A stretch of 51,359 nt of DNA from positions 1 to 51,359 of the forward strand of contig DXJF01000040.1 in NCBI GenBank assembly GCA_019057375.1, read 5' to 3'. The notes under the pieces are model-generated. The model ran no database searches. It was not told the DNA's origin and saw only the letters and a list, made by a program, of their open reading frames with translations. Made by a program: the position numbers and the translations under genes. Positions 14,592 to 32,679 of this stretch are shown here, one piece after another (position 1 is the first letter of the stretch; each line of letters begins with the position of its first letter). This DNA is from Candidatus Heimdallarchaeota archaeon (GTDB lineage Archaea > Asgardarchaeota > Heimdallarchaeia > Heimdallarchaeales > Heimdallarchaeaceae).

Positions 14592-14666
14592 TGGTAGCCC
14601 TGAGAAGATTCGAACTTCTGTCTGTAAGCCTAAACCTACAATGCTTGGCCACTACACTACAGGGCT
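14592..14666 (-). tRNA. Gln-like tRNA gene with non-canonical anticodon arm (6-nt loop UUUAGG; UUA or UAG depending on register)
   Basis: AGCCCTG TA GTGTAGTGGCCAAGCAT T GTAGG TTTAGG CTTAC AGAC AGAAG TTCGAAT CTTCT CAGGGCT A CCA; acceptor, D and T arms intact; identity undetermined. Confidence 0.75.
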
Positions 14667-14918: not shown

Positions 14919-16844
14919 TTATTTTTTAGCCCATGAATCTCTCAAAGTAATTATTCTGTTTAAGACCAATTTTTCTTTTGTTGAATCGACTAAGTCTATA
15001 ACAAAATACCCATTTCTTTCAAATTGGAACCTTGATCCTGGTTCTTTATCCTTTAGGAATGGTTCCACATATGATTTCATTATATTTATAGAATCGGGAT
15101 TGATATAATCTTTGAACTCTTTTCCTTCTTCAGTATCCATTGGATTCTCCTTAGTGTACATTCTATCATATAATCTTACTTCAACTTCTAGTGCAAAATC
15201 TGCAGATAGCCAATGAATTGTTCCTTGAACTTTTCTTCCATCTGGAGATTCTCCTCCTTTTGTTTTTTGATCATAGGTACAATGAATTTCAACAATATCT
15301 CCTGTTTCTTCATCTTTAATTGCTTTCTCACATTTTATGAAGTAAGCATACTTTAATCTGACTTCTTTTCCTGGTGAAAGTCGATAATAATCTTCTGGAG
15401 GATTTTCCATGAAGTCATCTTGTTCAATGTAGAGATTTCTAGTAAATTTAACCTTTCGAGAACCCATTTCTTTGTCAGAAGGATGATTTGGTACTGTAAA
15501 ATCTTCTTCTATATCATCAGGATAATTTGTTATAACAAGTTTGATTGGATTTATTACACCCATTACTCTTGGGCATCTTTTGTCCAAATCTTCTCGTATA
15601 TAATGTTCAAAGATAGACATATCGATAAGTTTTTCACGTTTGGTGAAATTAATAGCTAAAGAGAAGTTGCGTACTGCTTCTGGTGTATATCCTCTTCTTC
15701 TCATTCCTGCTATTGTGAGCATTCGAGGGTCATCCCATCCGTTGACATAACCTTCCTCTACAAGCATCCTCAGTCTTCTTTTACTAAGGACCATGTAGGA
15801 GAGATTCATTTTAGCAAATTCTATTTGTTGAGAATGATGAATTGGATTACCATCTTCATCGTCTAATTGATCTATATACCAATCATAAAGTGGTCTATGT
15901 ACTTCGAATTCCAGAGTACAGATTGAATGAGTTATTCTTTCGATTGAATCCTCTAAACCATGAGCCCAATCATACATTGGATAGATGCACCACTTATCAC
16001 CAGTATTATGATGACTTGCATGAAGGATTCTGTATACTATCGGATCTCTCATTAACATATTAGGATGAGCCATATCGATTTTTGCTCGAAGAACTCTTTC
16101 CCCGTCCTTAAATTCTCCAGTTTTCATTCTCTCAAATAGATCTAGATTTTCTTCAATTGATCTGTTTCTGTATGGACTTTCCTTACCATGTTCTGTAATG
16201 GTTCCTCTCATTTCACGTATTTCTTCAATACTAGAATCATCTACATATGCTAATCCTTTCCTTACTAATTGAACCGCGTACTCGTAGAGTTGGTCAAAGT
16301 AATCAGAAGCAAAGAGAAGTCTATCTTCATAATCTACCCCTAACCATAGAACATCATTAATTATTGAATCAACAAATTCTTCTTCTTCTGTTAGAGGATT
16401 TGTATCATCAAATCTTAGGTTGAATTTACCTCCATATTCTACTGCAAAGTTATAGTTTCGATTAATGGAATATGCATGACCAACATGAAGCCATCCATTG
16501 GGTTCTGGAGGGAATCGAGTATGAACCTTTCCTCCAAATCTTCCGGTTCGGTTATGTTCTTCAATGATTTCTCGTATGAAATCAGCTTCTTCCTGAACTA
16601 TTTCTTCCTTCTTTTGCAGAAGTTCTGGATACTTTTCTTGTGCGAGTTGTTGTATTTCTTCAGGTTTTAATGAATTAATATATTCAATTTTCTTTTCTAA
16701 TATTTCTCTGATGCTGTCTGCATCCTTTCTCAATTCAGGTTCAGCTTTAAAGACTCTACCCATTACAGGACCTAAAGCTGCTTTCCCGTGTTCTAAAGCA
16801 TTTTCAACAGAATGTTTTTCGCACAATCTTTCTACTGATGTCAT
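14919..16844 (-). CDS. glnS: Glutamine--tRNA ligase (GlnRS) with archaeal GluRS-like N-terminal domain
   Basis: TRFPPEPNGWLHVGH (HIGH), LRFDDTNP, WCIYPMYDWAH, ITHSICTLEFE, VLSKR (KMSKS), GWDDPRM, GMRRRG, GRKVQGTIHW, FQFERNGYF, all GlnRS-type; ATG 16844 is the likely start (the track's 33-aa extension is AT-rich noise). Confidence 0.88.
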   Translation of the reverse strand: MTSVERLCEKHSVENALEHGKAALGPVMGRVFKAEPELRKDADSIREILEKKIEYINSLKPEEIQQLAQEKYPELLQKKEEIVQEEADFIREIIEEHNRTGRFGGKVHTRFPPEPNGWLHVGHAYSINRNYNFAVEYGGKFNLRFDDTNPLTEEEEFVDSIINDVLWLGVDYEDRLLFASDYFDQLYEYAVQLVRKGLAYVDDSSIEEIREMRGTITEHGKESPYRNRSIEENLDLFERMKTGEFKDGERVLRAKIDMAHPNMLMRDPIVYRILHASHHNTGDKWCIYPMYDWAHGLEDSIERITHSICTLEFEVHRPLYDWYIDQLDDEDGNPIHHSQQIEFAKMNLSYMVLSKRRLRMLVEEGYVNGWDDPRMLTIAGMRRRGYTPEAVRNFSLAINFTKREKLIDMSIFEHYIREDLDKRCPRVMGVINPIKLVITNYPDDIEEDFTVPNHPSDKEMGSRKVKFTRNLYIEQDDFMENPPEDYYRLSPGKEVRLKYAYFIKCEKAIKDEETGDIVEIHCTYDQKTKGGESPDGRKVQGTIHWLSADFALEVEVRLYDRMYTKENPMDTEEGKEFKDYINPDSINIMKSYVEPFLKDKEPGSRFQFERNGYFVIDLVDSTKEKLVLNRIITLRDSWAKK

Positions 16845-16969
16845 AGTGTGTTTTTTGACGCATAGAGAGTAATAAATTTTTAGTATATTGTTTTTTTTTA
16901 AAAAAAATGAGAAAAAAGAATTTTCACAAAAGTTTATTTGCACCCAATCTATATTTTGTATTGATTCAA

Positions 16970-18195: not shown

Positions 18196-18344
18196 AGAAA
18201 AACCTATACAGTACTATAATTATGACAAATATTCTTTGTTATAAAAATTGTTCCTCAAAAAATCTAAATATAGATAAAAATCAACGAACTGACGTAACCC
18301 CCAAAGTTCAGTTCTCTAAATAAACGGAAAGCAATAATTTCAAT

Positions 18345-18533
18345 CTATTTTCCATGATTGAATTTTCCTTGATTAAATTTGAACATAGCGTATTTCAGCT
18401 TTTTTTCCTCGTCATCAATGAACTTTGGATATTGAATCAAGATTTTGTCCAATTCTCTATTTAAATTCTTCAAGTCGTTATCCATTTTAGAGAGAATACC
18501 ATTCATTTCTTCTACAAGATTCTCTGGTTGCAT
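18345..18533 (-). CDS. Small coiled-coil hypothetical protein
   Basis: 62-aa ORF from ATG 18533 with heptad-like pattern. Confidence 0.45.
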   Translation of the reverse strand: MQPENLVEEMNGILSKMDNDLKNLNRELDKILIQYPKFIDDEEKKLKYAMFKFNQGKFNHGK

Positions 18534-18648
18534 GATAATAAAATAGAGAGACACTTTTATTTGTTATATAATACTCGTATATCATTGAGGAATATATTGT
18601 AATTATTTATTATGATTCTTAATTTAGCTATAATGTTTATTAGTAGAT

Positions 18649-18723
18649 AAGGAAATTACCATGTTTTCAAAGCTGTTATCTTGCAAACAGCTTATAATGG
18701 GATTACATGGAAACCCATTCCTT
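18649..18723 (-). ncRNA. Putative omega-RNA scaffold / element right-end structure of the TnpB-like gene
   Basis: Immediately after the stop: nested stems AAGGAA/TTCCTT, CCATGT/ACATGG, perfect AAGCTGTT/AACAGCTT hairpin, plus crossing AATGGG/CCCATT pairing. Confidence 0.55.
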
Positions 18724-18728
18724 AAAAC

Positions 18729-20936
18729 CTATAGTCTTAAGGGAATGATATTTCGTGATATATTTCCTAAGTTTCTAGCTGCATTCAAGTCACTATCTAA
18801 ACTTAAATTGCACATATTATTTCGACACTGGAAAAGTTTTCCTATTCTAATTCCCTCTTCTCCACACCAAGAGCAAATCTTTGAGCTTTTAAAAGGATTA
18901 GTTAAATAAATCCTTATTTTCTCTCTCCTAGCTAATTTAGAAGTAAACTGGATAATTTGGCTAAAGAACCAATGAACCTGCCAAGTTGATAGGAAAAACC
19001 CACCTTTCATCTTTGAGATATGTTTTGCCCACCTTAAGTCTTCAAAACGTATTGAATCTACATTATTGTACTTCGCAAATTCCACTATTCGTGTACTAAT
19101 TTGGTGAATTATCTCAGTATGAATATTTTGTATGCTCAACCAGCAAGATTTGTATTCTCTTCTTAAATACCAATATTCTTTAGTGTGGTTGTATTTTGGA
19201 TACTGTTTATTCTTTTTCCTTTTTAGCTTGTTCTTATTCTTCAATTTGGTTAGTCTTGCCTGAATAGAATACACTTTACATTGTAAATTCAATAACTTGG
19301 ATTTTAAGTTTGCATAATTAAAATATAGTTCCTTTTCTTTTGGTGATTTTTCATTTACATTAACGAACCATCTATCTTTTTTTCCGTTTATTTCTTTTTG
19401 ATCAAGGAATTTTCTTTGCAGTTCAATATTGCCTTGAGTAATACTCAAAGTAGCAAAAGTTTTCAAACCTAAATCACAATTGAGTATTTTTTGTTCTTCA
19501 AGTGGTTTTTCTTTTAGTAGCTTAGGTAAACGCTTCAAAAACGGAATAGCAAGTTTTAGCTTACTACCTCTAGCCATTAGTACACCACGAGAAGGAGTAG
19601 CTCCTCTTTTGATTAACTCATAAAAACGCTCTGGTTTTACTAGCTTATATTCACTTCTTATATTTGGATAGAAGGATAGAGAGATGTTTACTTCATTCTG
19701 ATTATAAATAAGTTTGTAAATCTGACCATCATCTATTCCGAGAGGAATTGAAGATTTTGTAAATTTTGGAGTTTTAAGATATTTCATTGGCTTTTCGATA
19801 AATTTCTGCAAAAAGATTCTCACTTTTGGAAGGTAAATGTGTTTTAACTGATTTATAGCTAGTCTAATTATATGGTAATTAATTAACCTGATATAAAATG
19901 AAATAAAGTCTTTCTTAAGATCTCCAGATAAATAAATACGAAGATTAAACTTATTGGGAAAAATAAGATGTTTCAGAAAAATATTAGAAGGTATTTTCCT
20001 ATTCTTATTTAATTGGTTTTCAATTTCTTTGAGTAACTTGTCCTTAGTCATATCATTATTAATTTTGTTTTTGAATCCAATCATCCAAAGCTCTTTCTTT
20101 AGCAACCATTCATCTGTTTCAACTGAGAGTAAGTCTTTTGTTTTGCATATTTGATAAACTACTTTAGTTAGATGTTGTTTATTTATTTTTGACAGATTAC
20201 CTTTTGACACAAGAATTTTTTTTATCCTTTTAAAACGACGAGTCAACATCGAAGAAGCTCTAGCACTGAATTTATTCAATAGTGTAGATTTGTAAACCTC
20301 CGAATATTGTTTCACAAGTATTTGTTTTATGTCTTCTTTTTGTATAGAAAATTCTATGAACAATTGCTGTAATTCTTTAAGAAGATGTTTTTTTAAGTGC
20401 AAAAAACAATTATTAATAACAAATGAAGACCAGTTTACTTTTTTCCTTGAATCTATTTTTTCCCTGATTTGTCTCATATATTCAATAGGTAGCAAAATCT
20501 TATACTTTAGAGAAGTATTCTTATTAAAATCACAATATTTCCAGTGTTCAAAATGCAAATCTAACCAAGTAGATTTTTCACTTAATGTTTGAGCTATTAA
20601 TGTATAAACACATTTAGTGCTCTTTGAATTTCTAATCGAGAAGTATGCATATTGTGCAGCACAGCGTACTAGTCTTTCTCTTATTTTTAATTGACGTAAA
20701 GCTTCCTTTAGTTTTGGTTGTTTAGTTACTCTTGTATAGAATTGTTTTACTGCTACCAAACTTTCGTTTTCGAATATTAAATCAGATAAATTTATTCCTT
20801 CTTTGATTAGTAAATTAACAGCAGAAGAGTGTTTATCAAAAACATCAGTATCAAGCTCCAACTCATTTTCTATAGATTCTATGTCAAATATTCTAGTAAT
20901 TATTTCTGTAGAGATTGAAGCCACCTTTGAAATCAT
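18729..20936 (-). CDS. tnpB: Large (735 aa) TnpB/Cas12-superfamily RNA-guided endonuclease
   Basis: RuvC-I LNCDLGLKTFAT, RuvC-II IRFEDL, SKICSWCG..FQC..C zinc finger, RuvC-III DSDLNAARNL; very basic; no tnpA or CRISPR adjacent. Confidence 0.88.
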   Translation of the reverse strand: MISKVASISTEIITRIFDIESIENELELDTDVFDKHSSAVNLLIKEGINLSDLIFENESLVAVKQFYTRVTKQPKLKEALRQLKIRERLVRCAAQYAYFSIRNSKSTKCVYTLIAQTLSEKSTWLDLHFEHWKYCDFNKNTSLKYKILLPIEYMRQIREKIDSRKKVNWSSFVINNCFLHLKKHLLKELQQLFIEFSIQKEDIKQILVKQYSEVYKSTLLNKFSARASSMLTRRFKRIKKILVSKGNLSKINKQHLTKVVYQICKTKDLLSVETDEWLLKKELWMIGFKNKINNDMTKDKLLKEIENQLNKNRKIPSNIFLKHLIFPNKFNLRIYLSGDLKKDFISFYIRLINYHIIRLAINQLKHIYLPKVRIFLQKFIEKPMKYLKTPKFTKSSIPLGIDDGQIYKLIYNQNEVNISLSFYPNIRSEYKLVKPERFYELIKRGATPSRGVLMARGSKLKLAIPFLKRLPKLLKEKPLEEQKILNCDLGLKTFATLSITQGNIELQRKFLDQKEINGKKDRWFVNVNEKSPKEKELYFNYANLKSKLLNLQCKVYSIQARLTKLKNKNKLKRKKNKQYPKYNHTKEYWYLRREYKSCWLSIQNIHTEIIHQISTRIVEFAKYNNVDSIRFEDLRWAKHISKMKGGFFLSTWQVHWFFSQIIQFTSKLARREKIRIYLTNPFKSSKICSWCGEEGIRIGKLFQCRNNMCNLSLDSDLNAARNLGNISRNIIPLRL

Positions 20937-21024
20937 ATGAACAAAATGATATTTAAAGTAGGCAAAAATTGATAATTGAACATATTGTTAGATTAAATTA
21001 CCCCCGTAATACACATTTTAGAGA

Positions 21025-21201
21025 CTATTGTTCTCTGTGTCCAGTAATTGTAGTTCGTATATCGGGTGAAAGGCATTCAGGACATACAGTTTTTGTGGTG
21101 AAAATTCCATCAATTTGCTCCTTTAAGGTCTTTTTCTCTTCATTGTTGAAACGATTCCCACAGTTATTACAGATAAATGCATCTGGTCTCTTCACTGACA
21201 T
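21025..21201 (-). CDS. Zinc-ribbon microprotein (58 aa, MSVKRPDAFICNNCG...VCPECLSPDI...)
   Basis: Manual translation; CNNC and CPEC pairs; below the ORF-track cutoff. Confidence 0.7.
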   Translation of the reverse strand: MSVKRPDAFICNNCGNRFNNEEKKTLKEQIDGIFTTKTVCPECLSPDIRTTITGHREQ

Positions 21202-21303
21202 GTAATCACTAGAACTAATATAAGACTATCAAAATATAACTTTTACTCTAAATAGAGAAAAAAAGTAGTAAAGGCTCATAATTCAACATTTGCTAGTATT
21301 GTT

Positions 21304-30791: not shown

Positions 30792-31230
30792 TTTTTTCAC
30801 CTAATTGTTTTCTAGTATTGTAGCTTTGACTTAGTAGGAATCTTTCTTGAAGTTTCACCGTTTTAAACGTTCTAAGTAAATAGAGTAGTTTTCAATATTA
30901 AATATCATAAACGAAGTCAATTTTCGTTAGGGATACCATTTTTCTTCATAATCGAGCATTACAGTTAGTCAATCATATAACTATTCATATCTTTAAATAG
31001 TTATTCTTTTATTATCCTATATATTAATAAGTTCTTATAATAATTATTAAGTAATATTGTGATGAATCTATGATTAATTAAAGTAAAGTATAATTAATAT
31101 GTTGTTTTCAATAGTAATTACTATAAAAGAAAGCTTAAAAGATGATATTTTTCTTTGTTTAATTGGAAATAATCTTTTAAAATACCAATCTATTTTATAC
31201 ATAACTGATTAATTATTTGAGTTGATTGAG

Positions 31231-32679
31231 ATGAGACCTACTATCAATATTCTTGAAAAAGAACTAAAGGAAAAAGTTGTAATAGAAGCAATGGAAATAC
31301 TAGAAGAACTCGGTTTTTTTGTCGAAAATGATGAAGCAATACAAATCCTACAAAATGAAGGATTAAATGTTGACACAATTAACAGACGAGTAAAAATCCC
31401 TCCAGATCTTATTAAGAAATCATTAAAAACTGCCCCCTCATCAGTTCCGCTCTATGATAGAGACGGCAATTTAGTTACTAAATTAGAGGGAGACAATATC
31501 TGTTTTGACCCTGGTTCAGCAGCACTTAATGTTTTAGATCCAGAAACTAATGAAATTCGATCCGCGGTTACAAAGGATTTTGTTAATTTCACTAAGGTTG
31601 TTGATCAACTTGAACATATACATGCTCAAAGTACAGCTATAATTTGTTCAGATGTACCAGAAGAAATTGGTGATAGATATAGAATGTTAATTTCATTGAT
31701 TTACTCAAAAAAACCAATTGTAACTGGAACATTTGCAAAAGAATCATTTGAAGTAATGAAAGATATGTTGGTAGCTGTAAGAGGAAGTGAAGAAGAACTA
31801 AGAAAAAAACCTCTTGCCATATTTGATGCTTGCCCCTCACCACCTTTAAAATGGAGTGACTTGACATGTCAAAGTATAATTGATTGTGCTAGATATGGCA
31901 TCCCTTCTGAATTTGTCTCTATGCCAATGACAGGTGCTAATGCACCAGTTACTATTCTCGGAGCAATCGTTCAACATGCAGCAGAAACATTAGCTGGATT
32001 AGTTATAACTCAACTTGTATCTCCAAGAGCTCCTGTAATTTGGGGAGGTTCTCCCGCAGTTTTCGATCTACGAAAGGCTACCACACCCATGGGTTCTATT
32101 GATACTATGATTCTTGATCTCGGTTATGTTGAAATTGGCAAATATCTCAATCTACCTACTCATACTTATCTAGGTATGTCAGATACCAAGATACTTGATA
32201 TGCAATCTGGATTTGAATCTGGTATGGGAGCTCTTTTAGCTGGAATCAAGGGGGTAAACATGATTTCTGGAGCTGGTATGATTGATTTCGAAACAACTCA
32301 AAGTATTCAGAAAGTTGTCATTGATAATCAGATGTGTGGAATGATTCACAAATTCAACAAGGGTATTGTTCAAAGAGATGAACCTATTGCAAAAAATCTG
32401 TTAATCGATTTGGAAGAGAAAACTCATTTACTTTCACATGATCACACATTGAAATGGTTCAGGGAGGAACATTACATTCCTAATCAAATTATCGATCGAT
32501 CAACCAATGAAGAATGGATAAACAAAGGAAGAAAATCTGTTACTCAAAGAGCAACTGAAGAAGTAGATAAGCTCTTGAAGAAATATTCAGGTAGTTCTTT
32601 AGATAAAGAGAATATTTCTAGTCTGATAAACATAATGAGTTACAAGGATATAGATTTTAGAAAGTTACTAGGGATTTAA
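31231..32679 (+). CDS. Non-pyrrolysine trimethylamine methyltransferase (MttB/MtgB superfamily)
   Basis: SPPLKWS, SMPMTGANAPVTILGA, GAPVIWGGS-like APVIWGGS, SDTKILDMQSGFES, GVNMISGAGM; Ser (TCT 32218-32220) at the Pyl-equivalent position. Confidence 0.9.
   Translation: MRPTINILEKELKEKVVIEAMEILEELGFFVENDEAIQILQNEGLNVDTINRRVKIPPDLIKKSLKTAPSSVPLYDRDGNLVTKLEGDNICFDPGSAALNVLDPETNEIRSAVTKDFVNFTKVVDQLEHIHAQSTAIICSDVPEEIGDRYRMLISLIYSKKPIVTGTFAKESFEVMKDMLVAVRGSEEELRKKPLAIFDACPSPPLKWSDLTCQSIIDCARYGIPSEFVSMPMTGANAPVTILGAIVQHAAETLAGLVITQLVSPRAPVIWGGSPAVFDLRKATTPMGSIDTMILDLGYVEIGKYLNLPTHTYLGMSDTKILDMQSGFESGMGALLAGIKGVNMISGAGMIDFETTQSIQKVVIDNQMCGMIHKFNKGIVQRDEPIAKNLLIDLEEKTHLLSHDHTLKWFREEHYIPNQIIDRSTNEEWINKGRKSVTQRATEEVDKLLKKYSGSSLDKENISSLINIMSYKDIDFRKLLGI

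Follow-up and report, generated by a model that had tools for sequence, protein, structure and literature searches.

A probable tnpA-less IS607-family element encoding an oversized TnpB in a Heimdall-group Asgard archaeon

The window analysed here is the whole 51,359-nt stretch of contig DXJF01000040.1 (assembly GCA_019057375.1), from a Candidatus Heimdallarchaeota archaeon, and its subject is a gene on the minus strand at positions 18729–20936 that encodes a 735-residue nuclease of the TnpB type, together with the transposon in which this gene appears to travel. A preliminary description of the same DNA, made from its letters alone, had called the protein an oversized, stand-alone TnpB/Cas12-like nuclease, and had proposed that it represents a large effector clade of OMEGA type (short for obligate mobile element-guided activity) in archaea, either on a non-autonomous element or domesticated by its host.

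The oversized TnpB and its predicted fold

The tnpB reading frame is uninterrupted and has full-length homologues at 29–48% identity. Its C-terminal part shows the arrangement typical of TnpB, namely a RuvC D-E-D triad split by a C-terminal C4 zinc finger (TNB). The triad consists of D488 in the RuvC-I motif DLGLK (19473–19475, minus strand, as are all parts of the gene), E632 at the canonical position in FEDLRW of RuvC-II (19041–19043), and D716 in DSDLNAARN of RuvC-III (18789–18791). All three residues are invariant in an alignment of 22 family members, 21 of which read DLG(L/V)K at RuvC-I. The zinc finger has the form CxxC...CxxxxC (18810–18875), with C688 and C704 invariant and C691 and C709 nearly so in the same alignment; the intact triad and zinc finger of the preliminary description are thus confirmed. 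Cas12f1-like_TNB (PF07282; residues 658–723, 46.8 bits against a cut-off of 26.3, 3.3e-12) is the only Pfam domain that exceeds its cut-off, an OrfB_IS605 stretch remaining below threshold. The NCBIfam models Cas12f2, guided_TnpB, and IS607_TnpB align to residues 564–725 only, all far below their cut-offs, and a PDB sequence search with the window TnpB retrieves TnpB and Cas12f chains over residues 600–728 only. With a profile of the family, Cas12f is reached among PDB sequences at an E value of ~1e-17.

About 484 residues precede RuvC-I, in agreement with the ~480 first reported. The long basic insertion noted after RuvC-I is real, with 11 Lys or Arg among 27 residues (566–592) that form a loop joining two long helices; it is, however, confined to the clade of the window protein and corresponds to an alignment gap in the other clades of the family. 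As the preliminary description had stated, neither a CRISPR-like array nor a transposase gene was found in the window. Resolvase and Y1 TnpA genes are both missing from the window contig; resolvase domains are matched four times on the other contigs of the genome, and Y1 TnpA nowhere in it.

An AlphaFold2 model of the whole protein, based on a 22-sequence alignment, has a predicted local distance difference test score (pLDDT) of 85.6. It begins with a β strand (residues 10–21), followed by an all-helical block (~30–385), β strands (396–469), and, from residue 483, the half that contains RuvC and the zinc finger. The N-terminal module (residues 1–484; 19485–20936) modelled alone reaches a pLDDT of 84.6. 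The best Foldseek matches of the protein are AsCas12f, CnCas12f, and OsCas12f (E ~1e-11), followed by the TnpBs of ISFba1 and ISDra2 (5e-7 for ISDra2) and many Cas12 subtypes, with mimivirus Fanzor2 at rank 46. When the N-terminal model is aligned with VIA-align, it matches the wedge (WED) and recognition (REC) domains of Cas12X2, AsCas12f, CasLambda, ISDra2 TnpB, and Fanzor2 (rank 13) with Z scores of 10–13, over just 150–213 of its 484 residues. The predicted N-terminal half accordingly has the WED-REC-WED organization of the TnpB/Cas12 fold, with the β strands (10–21 and 396–469) assigned to WED and the helical block to REC. Since so few N-terminal residues align, the extra length corresponds, in the models, to an enlarged REC inserted in a canonical WED. 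According to the models, then, the window TnpB has a canonical WED/RuvC/zinc-finger core combined with a helical REC about three times the usual size, and the REC/WED expansion suggested at the outset is borne out in this form by structure prediction and fold search. Winged-helix-like sub-matches within REC (cullin WHB, ORC, and Cdt1; Z 5–7) lie below the level trusted for helical folds and were rejected.

Insertion site, element ends, and a predicted omega-RNA

Empty sites were located by means of orthologues of a neighbouring 288-aa gene in other genomes of the genus, using tblastx and sequence comparison. In four relatives (G026, G032, G017, and G033) the gene order is a DUF389 gene, a 69-aa open reading frame (ORF), a 58-aa zinc-ribbon ORF, and the 288-aa gene, and in all four the sequences corresponding to window positions 18332–18587 and 20997–21265 are contiguous. 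Compared with the empty site, the window contains an insertion of 2,342 bp, bounded by the direct 8-mer AAATTACC (plus strand; sense GGTAATTT) at 18653–18660 and 20995–21002. The whole insertion, at 18653–21002 on the minus strand, occupies an intergenic spacer and breaks no gene. Just beyond its right end lies the 69-aa host ORF (18345–18554, minus strand), which is conserved at the empty site in relatives, and just beyond its left end the 58-aa zinc-ribbon ORF with its CxxC...CxxC motif (21025–21201, minus strand; 74–87% in relatives by tblastx); both are outside the element, which probably sits in the promoter region of the former.

Copies of the element found elsewhere in the genus occupy other places. 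G032, where the site is empty, has a full-length copy of its own adjoining an aminotransferase gene, the copy of G036 adjoins a small GTPase-like gene, and the same-genus copies L004 and L006 lie between different genes. At the DNA level, only the coding 3′ half of the same-genus loci can be compared with the window (~65% identity), so that the ends of the element are not definable in this way.

The right end terminates in GGT (18658–18660, minus strand), read as a putative GG crossover core and a fixed T; it was placed by copy pairs of genome G141 and by the right ends of the family, all of which finish CGGT, CTGT, or TGGT. The left end, placed by comparison with the empty sites, comprises the 63 nt before the ATG (20937–20999, minus strand). 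Its sense strand starts AATTTAATCTAAC..., and the left ends of G141 (AATTTGCAG) and L006 (CTAACATTGTGTTC) open in a similar way. The adjoining left flank, GGGGGT (21000–21005, minus strand), holds the putative GG core and, judging from empty sites and the flanks of the family, a candidate transposon-adjacent motif (TAM) of GGG type. Because the empty sites read GAGAGT or GGGGGT, the G-run is host sequence, and GGGTAATTT was therefore rejected as the element's own left terminus. A terminal inverted repeat was also considered, but the sole candidate in the window, a weak 13/15 match of the right end to the ATG region, was not used.

Among the family, the left flank is AAGGGT in both G141 copies and (G)GGT in 11 loci (the window, the G141 pair, and 8 loci placed by motif), whereas two loci with CTGT in place of CGGT at the right terminus have GTGT as their left flank. 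Such covariation of the left flank with the right terminus is predicted by a shared crossover core. The left boundary is defined by comparison for the window and the G141 pair only, and in these three cases GGT is present at both junctions, within shared stretches of 8, 7, and 3 bp, respectively.

Downstream of the stop codon, six relatives have a conserved stretch in common, which comes to an abrupt end at ...AAAA(N)CGGT. In the window we predict here a 93-nt scaffold of an omega-RNA (also called right-end RNA, reRNA) at 18658–18750 on the minus strand, on the grounds of conservation, covariation, minimum free energy, and a covariance model. Its putative P1 stem spans the stop codon (~18716–18748) and is closed by the loop UAUAG. 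A hairpin with a GGG/CCC stem follows, the loop of which (CCAUGU, in the 18705–18713 region) would form a pseudoknot with ACAUGG at the 3′ end (18656–18664 region), and a third hairpin, P3, is formed by 18670–18677 and 18686–18693. The scaffold ends in ...AAAACAUGGU (...CAUGGU). In an alignment of seven sequences, 84% of the cells are paired, compared to 34–47% with slid partners, compensatory changes occur in 17 of the 26 pairs, and none of 500 shuffles reaches the observed values. The same plan recurs at 12 loci of other clades, with a UAUA-loop hairpin, a hairpin loop that pairs with the 3′ end, and a terminal ...GUAAC(U/G)GU; here 95% of the cells are paired, and 98.8% in the pseudoknot helix. 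The minimum free energy of the 93-nt stretch has a z score of −4.0, and the window scaffold, at 109.7 bits, is the only match to covariance model R1 in the genome.

Identity within the G141 copy pair stops exactly after ...GACGGT, which shows that the conserved RNA ends at the right end of the transposon. The structured RNA thus overlaps the 3′ end of the ORF and terminates at the right end, as indicated by both the copy pairs and the insertion boundary in the window; at the sequence level, this is the defining geometry of an omega-RNA. The putative guide, placed by its position directly 3′ of the scaffold end, would be derived from the flank (18638–18657, minus strand; sense AAUUUCCUUAUCUACUAAUA). 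A search of the genome with its 18-mer gave no other near-match beyond a reversed-pattern control (37 versus 31), and the lack of a second genomic target is what one would expect of a flank-derived guide.

These features can be compared with those of characterized IS607 elements. GG core dinucleotides at both ends and a scaffold end of ...UCGG have been described for IS607, and TGGG is both the target of CboTnpA_S and the TAM of CboTnpB (10.1101/2023.11.20.567912). ISXfa1 has a GGG TAM, a fixed right-flanking nucleotide that is absorbed into the scaffold, and a pseudoknot that is required (PMC10711439). By analogy, the family appears to fit each of these published points on core, TAM, scaffold end, fixed nucleotide, and pseudoknot, and from this fit the TAM of the window element is probably of GGG type, with a guide predicted to start after GGU at 18657.

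The family and its IS607-type transposase

A word-indexed search retrieved 16 relatives of 655–1,074 aa, with up to 100% query coverage and 29–48% identity, and those with names are Heimdallarchaeota. The nearest relative of the window TnpB is only 48% identical. A profile of the N-terminal 484 residues matches only 145 of 1.84 billion cluster representatives, nearly all of them long proteins (about 600–1,890 aa) or fragments, with named members from Heimdall-, Kari-, and Loki-/Prometh-archaea. The N-terminal part is hence neither an unrelated fused piece, as the preliminary description had considered possible, nor common to ordinary TnpBs, and its predicted WED-REC-WED fold is family-specific. 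As far as named members go, the sequences place the family exclusively in Asgard archaea, which upholds the proposal of a distinct archaeal clade of large TnpB-type OMEGA effectors. Size alone is not unique, since a comparison with a cluster atlas, which returned only other TnpB clusters, included a bacterial one of 739 aa and a viral one of 680 aa. When the full family alignment was searched against a viral contig collection, generic C-terminal TnpB matches were obtained, and no full-length family member. Among the papers searched on TnpB with Asgard lineages, Fanzor, or IS607 there were general census and mechanism papers and none on the family. A TnpB census (Altae-Tran et al. 2023, PMC10691335) describes Asgard TnpBs linked to aCas1 and several serine-recombinase branches, and may already include family sequences in one of the latter.

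Within the phylum, 42 of 400 genomes have a match, ~15 of which are full length, while many of the rest are pieces of the C- or N-terminus, or reading frames interrupted by stops; within the genus, copies are present in 5 of 24 genomes, each at another locus. A patchy, decaying distribution of this kind is the expected trace of a mobile element. Mobility is also apparent from two diverged intragenomic copy pairs with sharp ends, in different genomes, one of 2,648 bp (89% identity) with tnpB only and the other of 3,186 bp (87% identity) with tnpA and tnpB. The tnpB genes of the family are under purifying selection, with ratios of nonsynonymous to synonymous substitution rates (dN/dS) of 0.19–0.26 in three recent copy pairs of other members, namely these two and a third.

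Directly upstream of the large tnpB and co-oriented with it, three loci (L009, L010, and L017) encode a protein of 195–202 aa. In L009 and L010, a MerR/HTH_17 domain at the N-terminus of this protein precedes a resolvase catalytic domain, which is the architecture of IS607-type TnpA, and tblastn detects this TnpA at no fewer than nine independent family loci. A MerR-helix-turn-helix (HTH) serine recombinase adjoining tnpB is thus a property of the family, and was not found beside the window copy or elsewhere in its genome, whose four resolvase ORFs begin with the catalytic domain, have no MerR HTH, and do not adjoin any tnpB. The window copy is probably a solo derivative of an IS607-family element. 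The earlier characterization of the gene as stand-alone, without a transposase, therefore applies to this copy, with no TnpA on its contig, but not to the family. Likewise, the suspicion that the protein would turn out to be an ordinary IS605/IS607 TnpB of a described length is half right: it groups with IS607 through the TnpA of its relatives, but does not belong to a described length class.

Several members of the family are unusual in other respects. Some of them (P0019, P0066, P0124, P0070, P0083, and P0065; 1,310–1,890 aa) have N-terminal extensions of 500–1,000 aa before WED-REC, in which no Pfam domain was found. In the tnpA-bearing clade, the left ends of L042, L043, L044, and L045 contain AAATCTGGACA, the reverse complement of ATGTCCAGATTT, which is subterminal in the right end and within the RNA scaffold (L008, L009, L018, L022, and L043); the two sequences are candidate binding sites of the serine recombinase, TnpA_S. 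At L010/L044 (G160:C51), the tnpB frame runs through most of the RNA scaffold to a stop 7 nt before the right end, so that protein coding and RNA structure overlap for ~100 nt. Two loci of the window's genus, L025 (G018:C51) and L031 (G023:C76), retain only 112-aa C-terminal or 109-aa N-terminal gene remnants; in L025 the scaffold persists, with the 3′ strand of the pseudoknot mutated from ACGG to ACAA. Finally, a pseudogenised family fragment in L029 adjoins a tandem repeat of 54 nt (2573–2764, G279:C1; 3.4 copies, Tandem Repeats Finder (TRF) score 319), in which whole units are repeated, unlike in a CRISPR array.

Interpretation and further observations

Taken together, the evidence makes it likely that the locus is a non-autonomous, tnpA-less OMEGA transposon of the IS607 family, and neither a domesticated gene nor a Cas12 system. 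The preliminary description had offered a non-autonomous element as one of two alternatives, and this alternative is supported, in that the site of the insertion is empty in four relatives and a predicted guide-RNA scaffold lies at the right end of the insertion. On this reading, a 2.34-kb element would have entered an intergenic spacer of this Heimdall-group archaeon at a GGGT site, carrying as its cargo the 735-aa TnpB and a compact omega-RNA with a pseudoknot, which begins across the stop codon and has its ...CAUGGU terminus at the right end. By analogy with the IS607 TnpBs that have been studied, processing of the transcript would yield the scaffold and ~16–20 nt of flank, which would serve as the guide. 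The scarless joint of the donor (a GGG-type TAM followed by the right flank) that remains upon excision by the serine recombinase would then be cut by the ribonucleoprotein, and copy-back by homologous recombination would keep the element in place. The nuclease is probably functional; its activity is inferred, as are the production and maturation of the RNA, the TAM, and the length of the guide. Mobility would now depend on TnpA supplied in trans.

A number of observations weigh against this interpretation. The protein scores far below the NCBIfam cut-offs for guided_TnpB (NF040570; 52.8 bits versus 100, residues 564–723) and IS607_TnpB (26.2 bits versus 350), although for guided_TnpB the low score reflects divergence and the enlarged REC and not the absence of the core. 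The 3-bp GGG/CCC stem is weak in the clade of the window, with 74% of its cells paired and no compensatory change. The TAM consensus is partly circular, because most left ends other than the three defined by comparison were placed by motif. Considered by itself, the 8-bp direct repeat could pass for a target-site duplication, a structure not produced by IS607, but the shared stretches of 8, 7, and 3 bp, in three cases only, seem to fit a core plus target resemblance better. Finally, the element need not be mobile today, as the genome has a single copy, and a search with a relative's TnpA did not find an IS607-type TnpA in this genome, which is 89% complete.

The last point is also an argument that the element might be a decaying relic, stranded without a transposase, in which TnpB and the omega-RNA look intact and are nonfunctional. 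Family fragments and pseudogenes are common in other genomes, including the two same-genus remnants described above, one of which has lost the 3′ strand of the pseudoknot, and the GC content of the element (27–30%) is lower than that of its surroundings. Against decay, the 735-codon frame is open and has every invariant residue of the family, all helices of the RNA are intact and score highly with R1, and the copies of the family are under purifying selection, although this was measured on other copies, the nearest relative of the window protein being only 48% identical. We therefore regard a relic as unlikely, yet as the most credible of the alternatives. Domestication as a host RNA-guided nuclease or regulator, for example, through a TldR-like or toxin-like exaptation, would account for a gene that stands alone without a transposase, and a large protein whose REC expansion could bring new partners would suit it; TnpB exaptations are, moreover, common (PMC10691335). 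The gene is absent, however, from the orthologous site in four relatives, and its distribution in the genus is patchy, with each copy at a different locus; the copies of G032 and G036 elsewhere, in combination with the empty site, rule out domestication at a syntenic position. No residue of the catalytic triad is missing, plain flank with no other target in the genome occupies the position of the guide, and no conserved neighbour gene was seen, all of which leaves this second alternative of the preliminary description very improbable.

Links to the Cas12 and Fanzor lineages fare worse still. That the best PDB matches by sequence and fold are Cas12f, and that the size is Cas12-like, could suggest a type V CRISPR effector (Cas12f-like or a V-U variant) with an array that is located elsewhere or escaped detection. 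However, no array was found in the window, nor by a TRF scan in the ~44 family loci, the RNA has the form of a scaffold at the right end, joined to the end of the ORF, and not that of a repeat, and the recurrent neighbour is TnpA_S; we give this explanation hardly any weight, and the special tie to the Cas12 transition that the size had suggested is likewise disfavoured by the array-free loci. It is just as improbable that the gene is an Asgard pro-Fanzor that links archaeal TnpB directly to eukaryotic Fanzor. In favour of such a link, no archaeal lineage is closer to eukaryotes than that of the host, the element resembles that of Fanzor2 in being of IS607 type, and REC is enlarged, as in Fanzor1. 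Published pro-Fanzors, on the other hand, are mainly cyanobacterial and are recognized by a DPG RuvC-I motif and a relocated glutamate (PMC10711439). In place of these signatures the family has DLG and the canonical Glu, no Fanzor chain passes an E value of 0.01 with the family profile, and Fanzor2 falls below Cas12f and TnpB in both fold searches, so that a special tie to the Fanzor transition is not favoured either.

If the locus is viewed as an IS607-family element, its closest known counterparts are ISXfa1 of Xylella fastidiosa and CboIStron of Clostridium botulinum. The resemblance extends to the MerR-HTH serine recombinase upstream of tnpB in relatives, a putative GG(T) core at both junctions, the G-rich, GGG-type left flank, the scaffold end of ...CGG followed by a fixed nucleotide, the pseudoknot that pairs an internal loop with the 3′ end, and the overlap of the RNA with the ORF end and the right end. 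Unlike these, the window element encodes a protein ~330 aa longer than a typical TnpB, all of it in REC according to the model, and too divergent for NCBIfam IS607_TnpB; this copy has no tnpA and no group I intron; and the named members of its family come only from Asgard archaea. Its predicted scaffold of ~93 nt is also shorter than the ~150-nt reRNA of ISXfa1. The Cas12f proteins (AsCas12f, CnCas12f, OsCas12f, and Un1Cas12f) come closest to the WED/RuvC/TNB core, both among solved structures and in sequence, but the family differs in the lack of a CRISPR array, a guide that would be taken from the transposon end, and a far larger REC. Cas12f acts as a dimer. ISDra2 and other IS200/IS605 TnpBs share the domain order, the D-E-D triad with zinc finger, and an omega-RNA with a pseudoknot, whereas they are ~400 aa long and are associated with a Y1 TnpA, of which this genome has none, and single-stranded DNA hairpin ends. 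Fanzor1, Fanzor2, and the pro-Fanzor IS607 TnpBs have IS607 ancestry in common with the window protein, and some are of similar size, Fanzor1 reaching ~800 aa through insertions in REC, RuvC, and the zinc finger; the window TnpB differs by DLG and a canonical E, by its prokaryotic host, and by a fold match weaker than that to Cas12f. The Asgard Cas1H-associated TnpB branches (PMC10691335) are also Asgard-linked lineages inside transposons, but their link is to aCas1, while the partner of the present family is a serine recombinase.

The immediate consequence concerns annotation: the gene would be a transposon passenger between two small host genes, and not a host nuclease. More generally, a tripled REC, which is usually read as a mark of the transition from TnpB to Cas12 or Fanzor, could arise and persist within an ordinary IS607 life cycle. 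The family is small and sharply delimited, and the definition of its ends, of its guide-RNA scaffold, and of a TAM that is probably of GGG type is good enough for direct testing. A bolder idea, which we put forward only tentatively and consider somewhat doubtful, is that an IS607 lineage restricted to Asgard archaea, and mobile to this day, has enlarged its TnpB to the dimensions of a Cas12 (655–1,890 aa), with no CRISPR array, by means of a family-specific REC and, in some members, the 500–1,000-aa extensions. If this is true, and if the enlarged REC alters guide length, specificity, or the recruitment of partners, large effectors would have been reached by a separate route, on a transposon and within the archaea most closely related to eukaryotes, and the window system, with its compact RNA (~93 nt) and predicted GGG TAM, would be a candidate editor.

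Elsewhere in the same genome, two further TnpB-like ORFs with TNB (G000:C81:6322–6837, within a 560-aa ORF at L002 1348–3030, and G000:C72:10512–10967, within a 522-aa ORF at L003 1348–2916) exceed the typical TnpB length, and are only ~30% identical to the C-terminus of the window TnpB. In the window itself, positions 32176–32275 on the plus strand match the Rfam family PYLIS_3, the pyrrolysine insertion element of mttB, with 43.3 bits against a gathering threshold of 38. The match lies inside an uninterrupted 485-aa ORF (31222–32679) with no in-frame TAG, and is probably due to a non-pyrrolysine MttB-family gene or to chance. Positions 14919–16943 on the minus strand encode a class I Glu/Gln-tRNA synthetase of 674 aa, which contains both anticodon-binding domains and is flanked by genes for tRNA-Gln(UUG) and tRNA-Gln(CUG); a glutaminyl-tRNA synthetase-like enzyme in an archaeon would be notable. 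Beside this gene, and between the two tRNA-Gln genes, lies another tRNA gene (14592–14666, minus strand; Rfam, 50 bits), which is tRNA-Gln-like and has a 6-nt anticodon loop, UUUAGG. ARAGORN calls no anticodon for it, and UUA would be possible. Reassignment of a stop codon is unlikely, since TAA is the commonest stop among the long ORFs of the window (16 of 33), and the tRNA may be defective or serve a special purpose.

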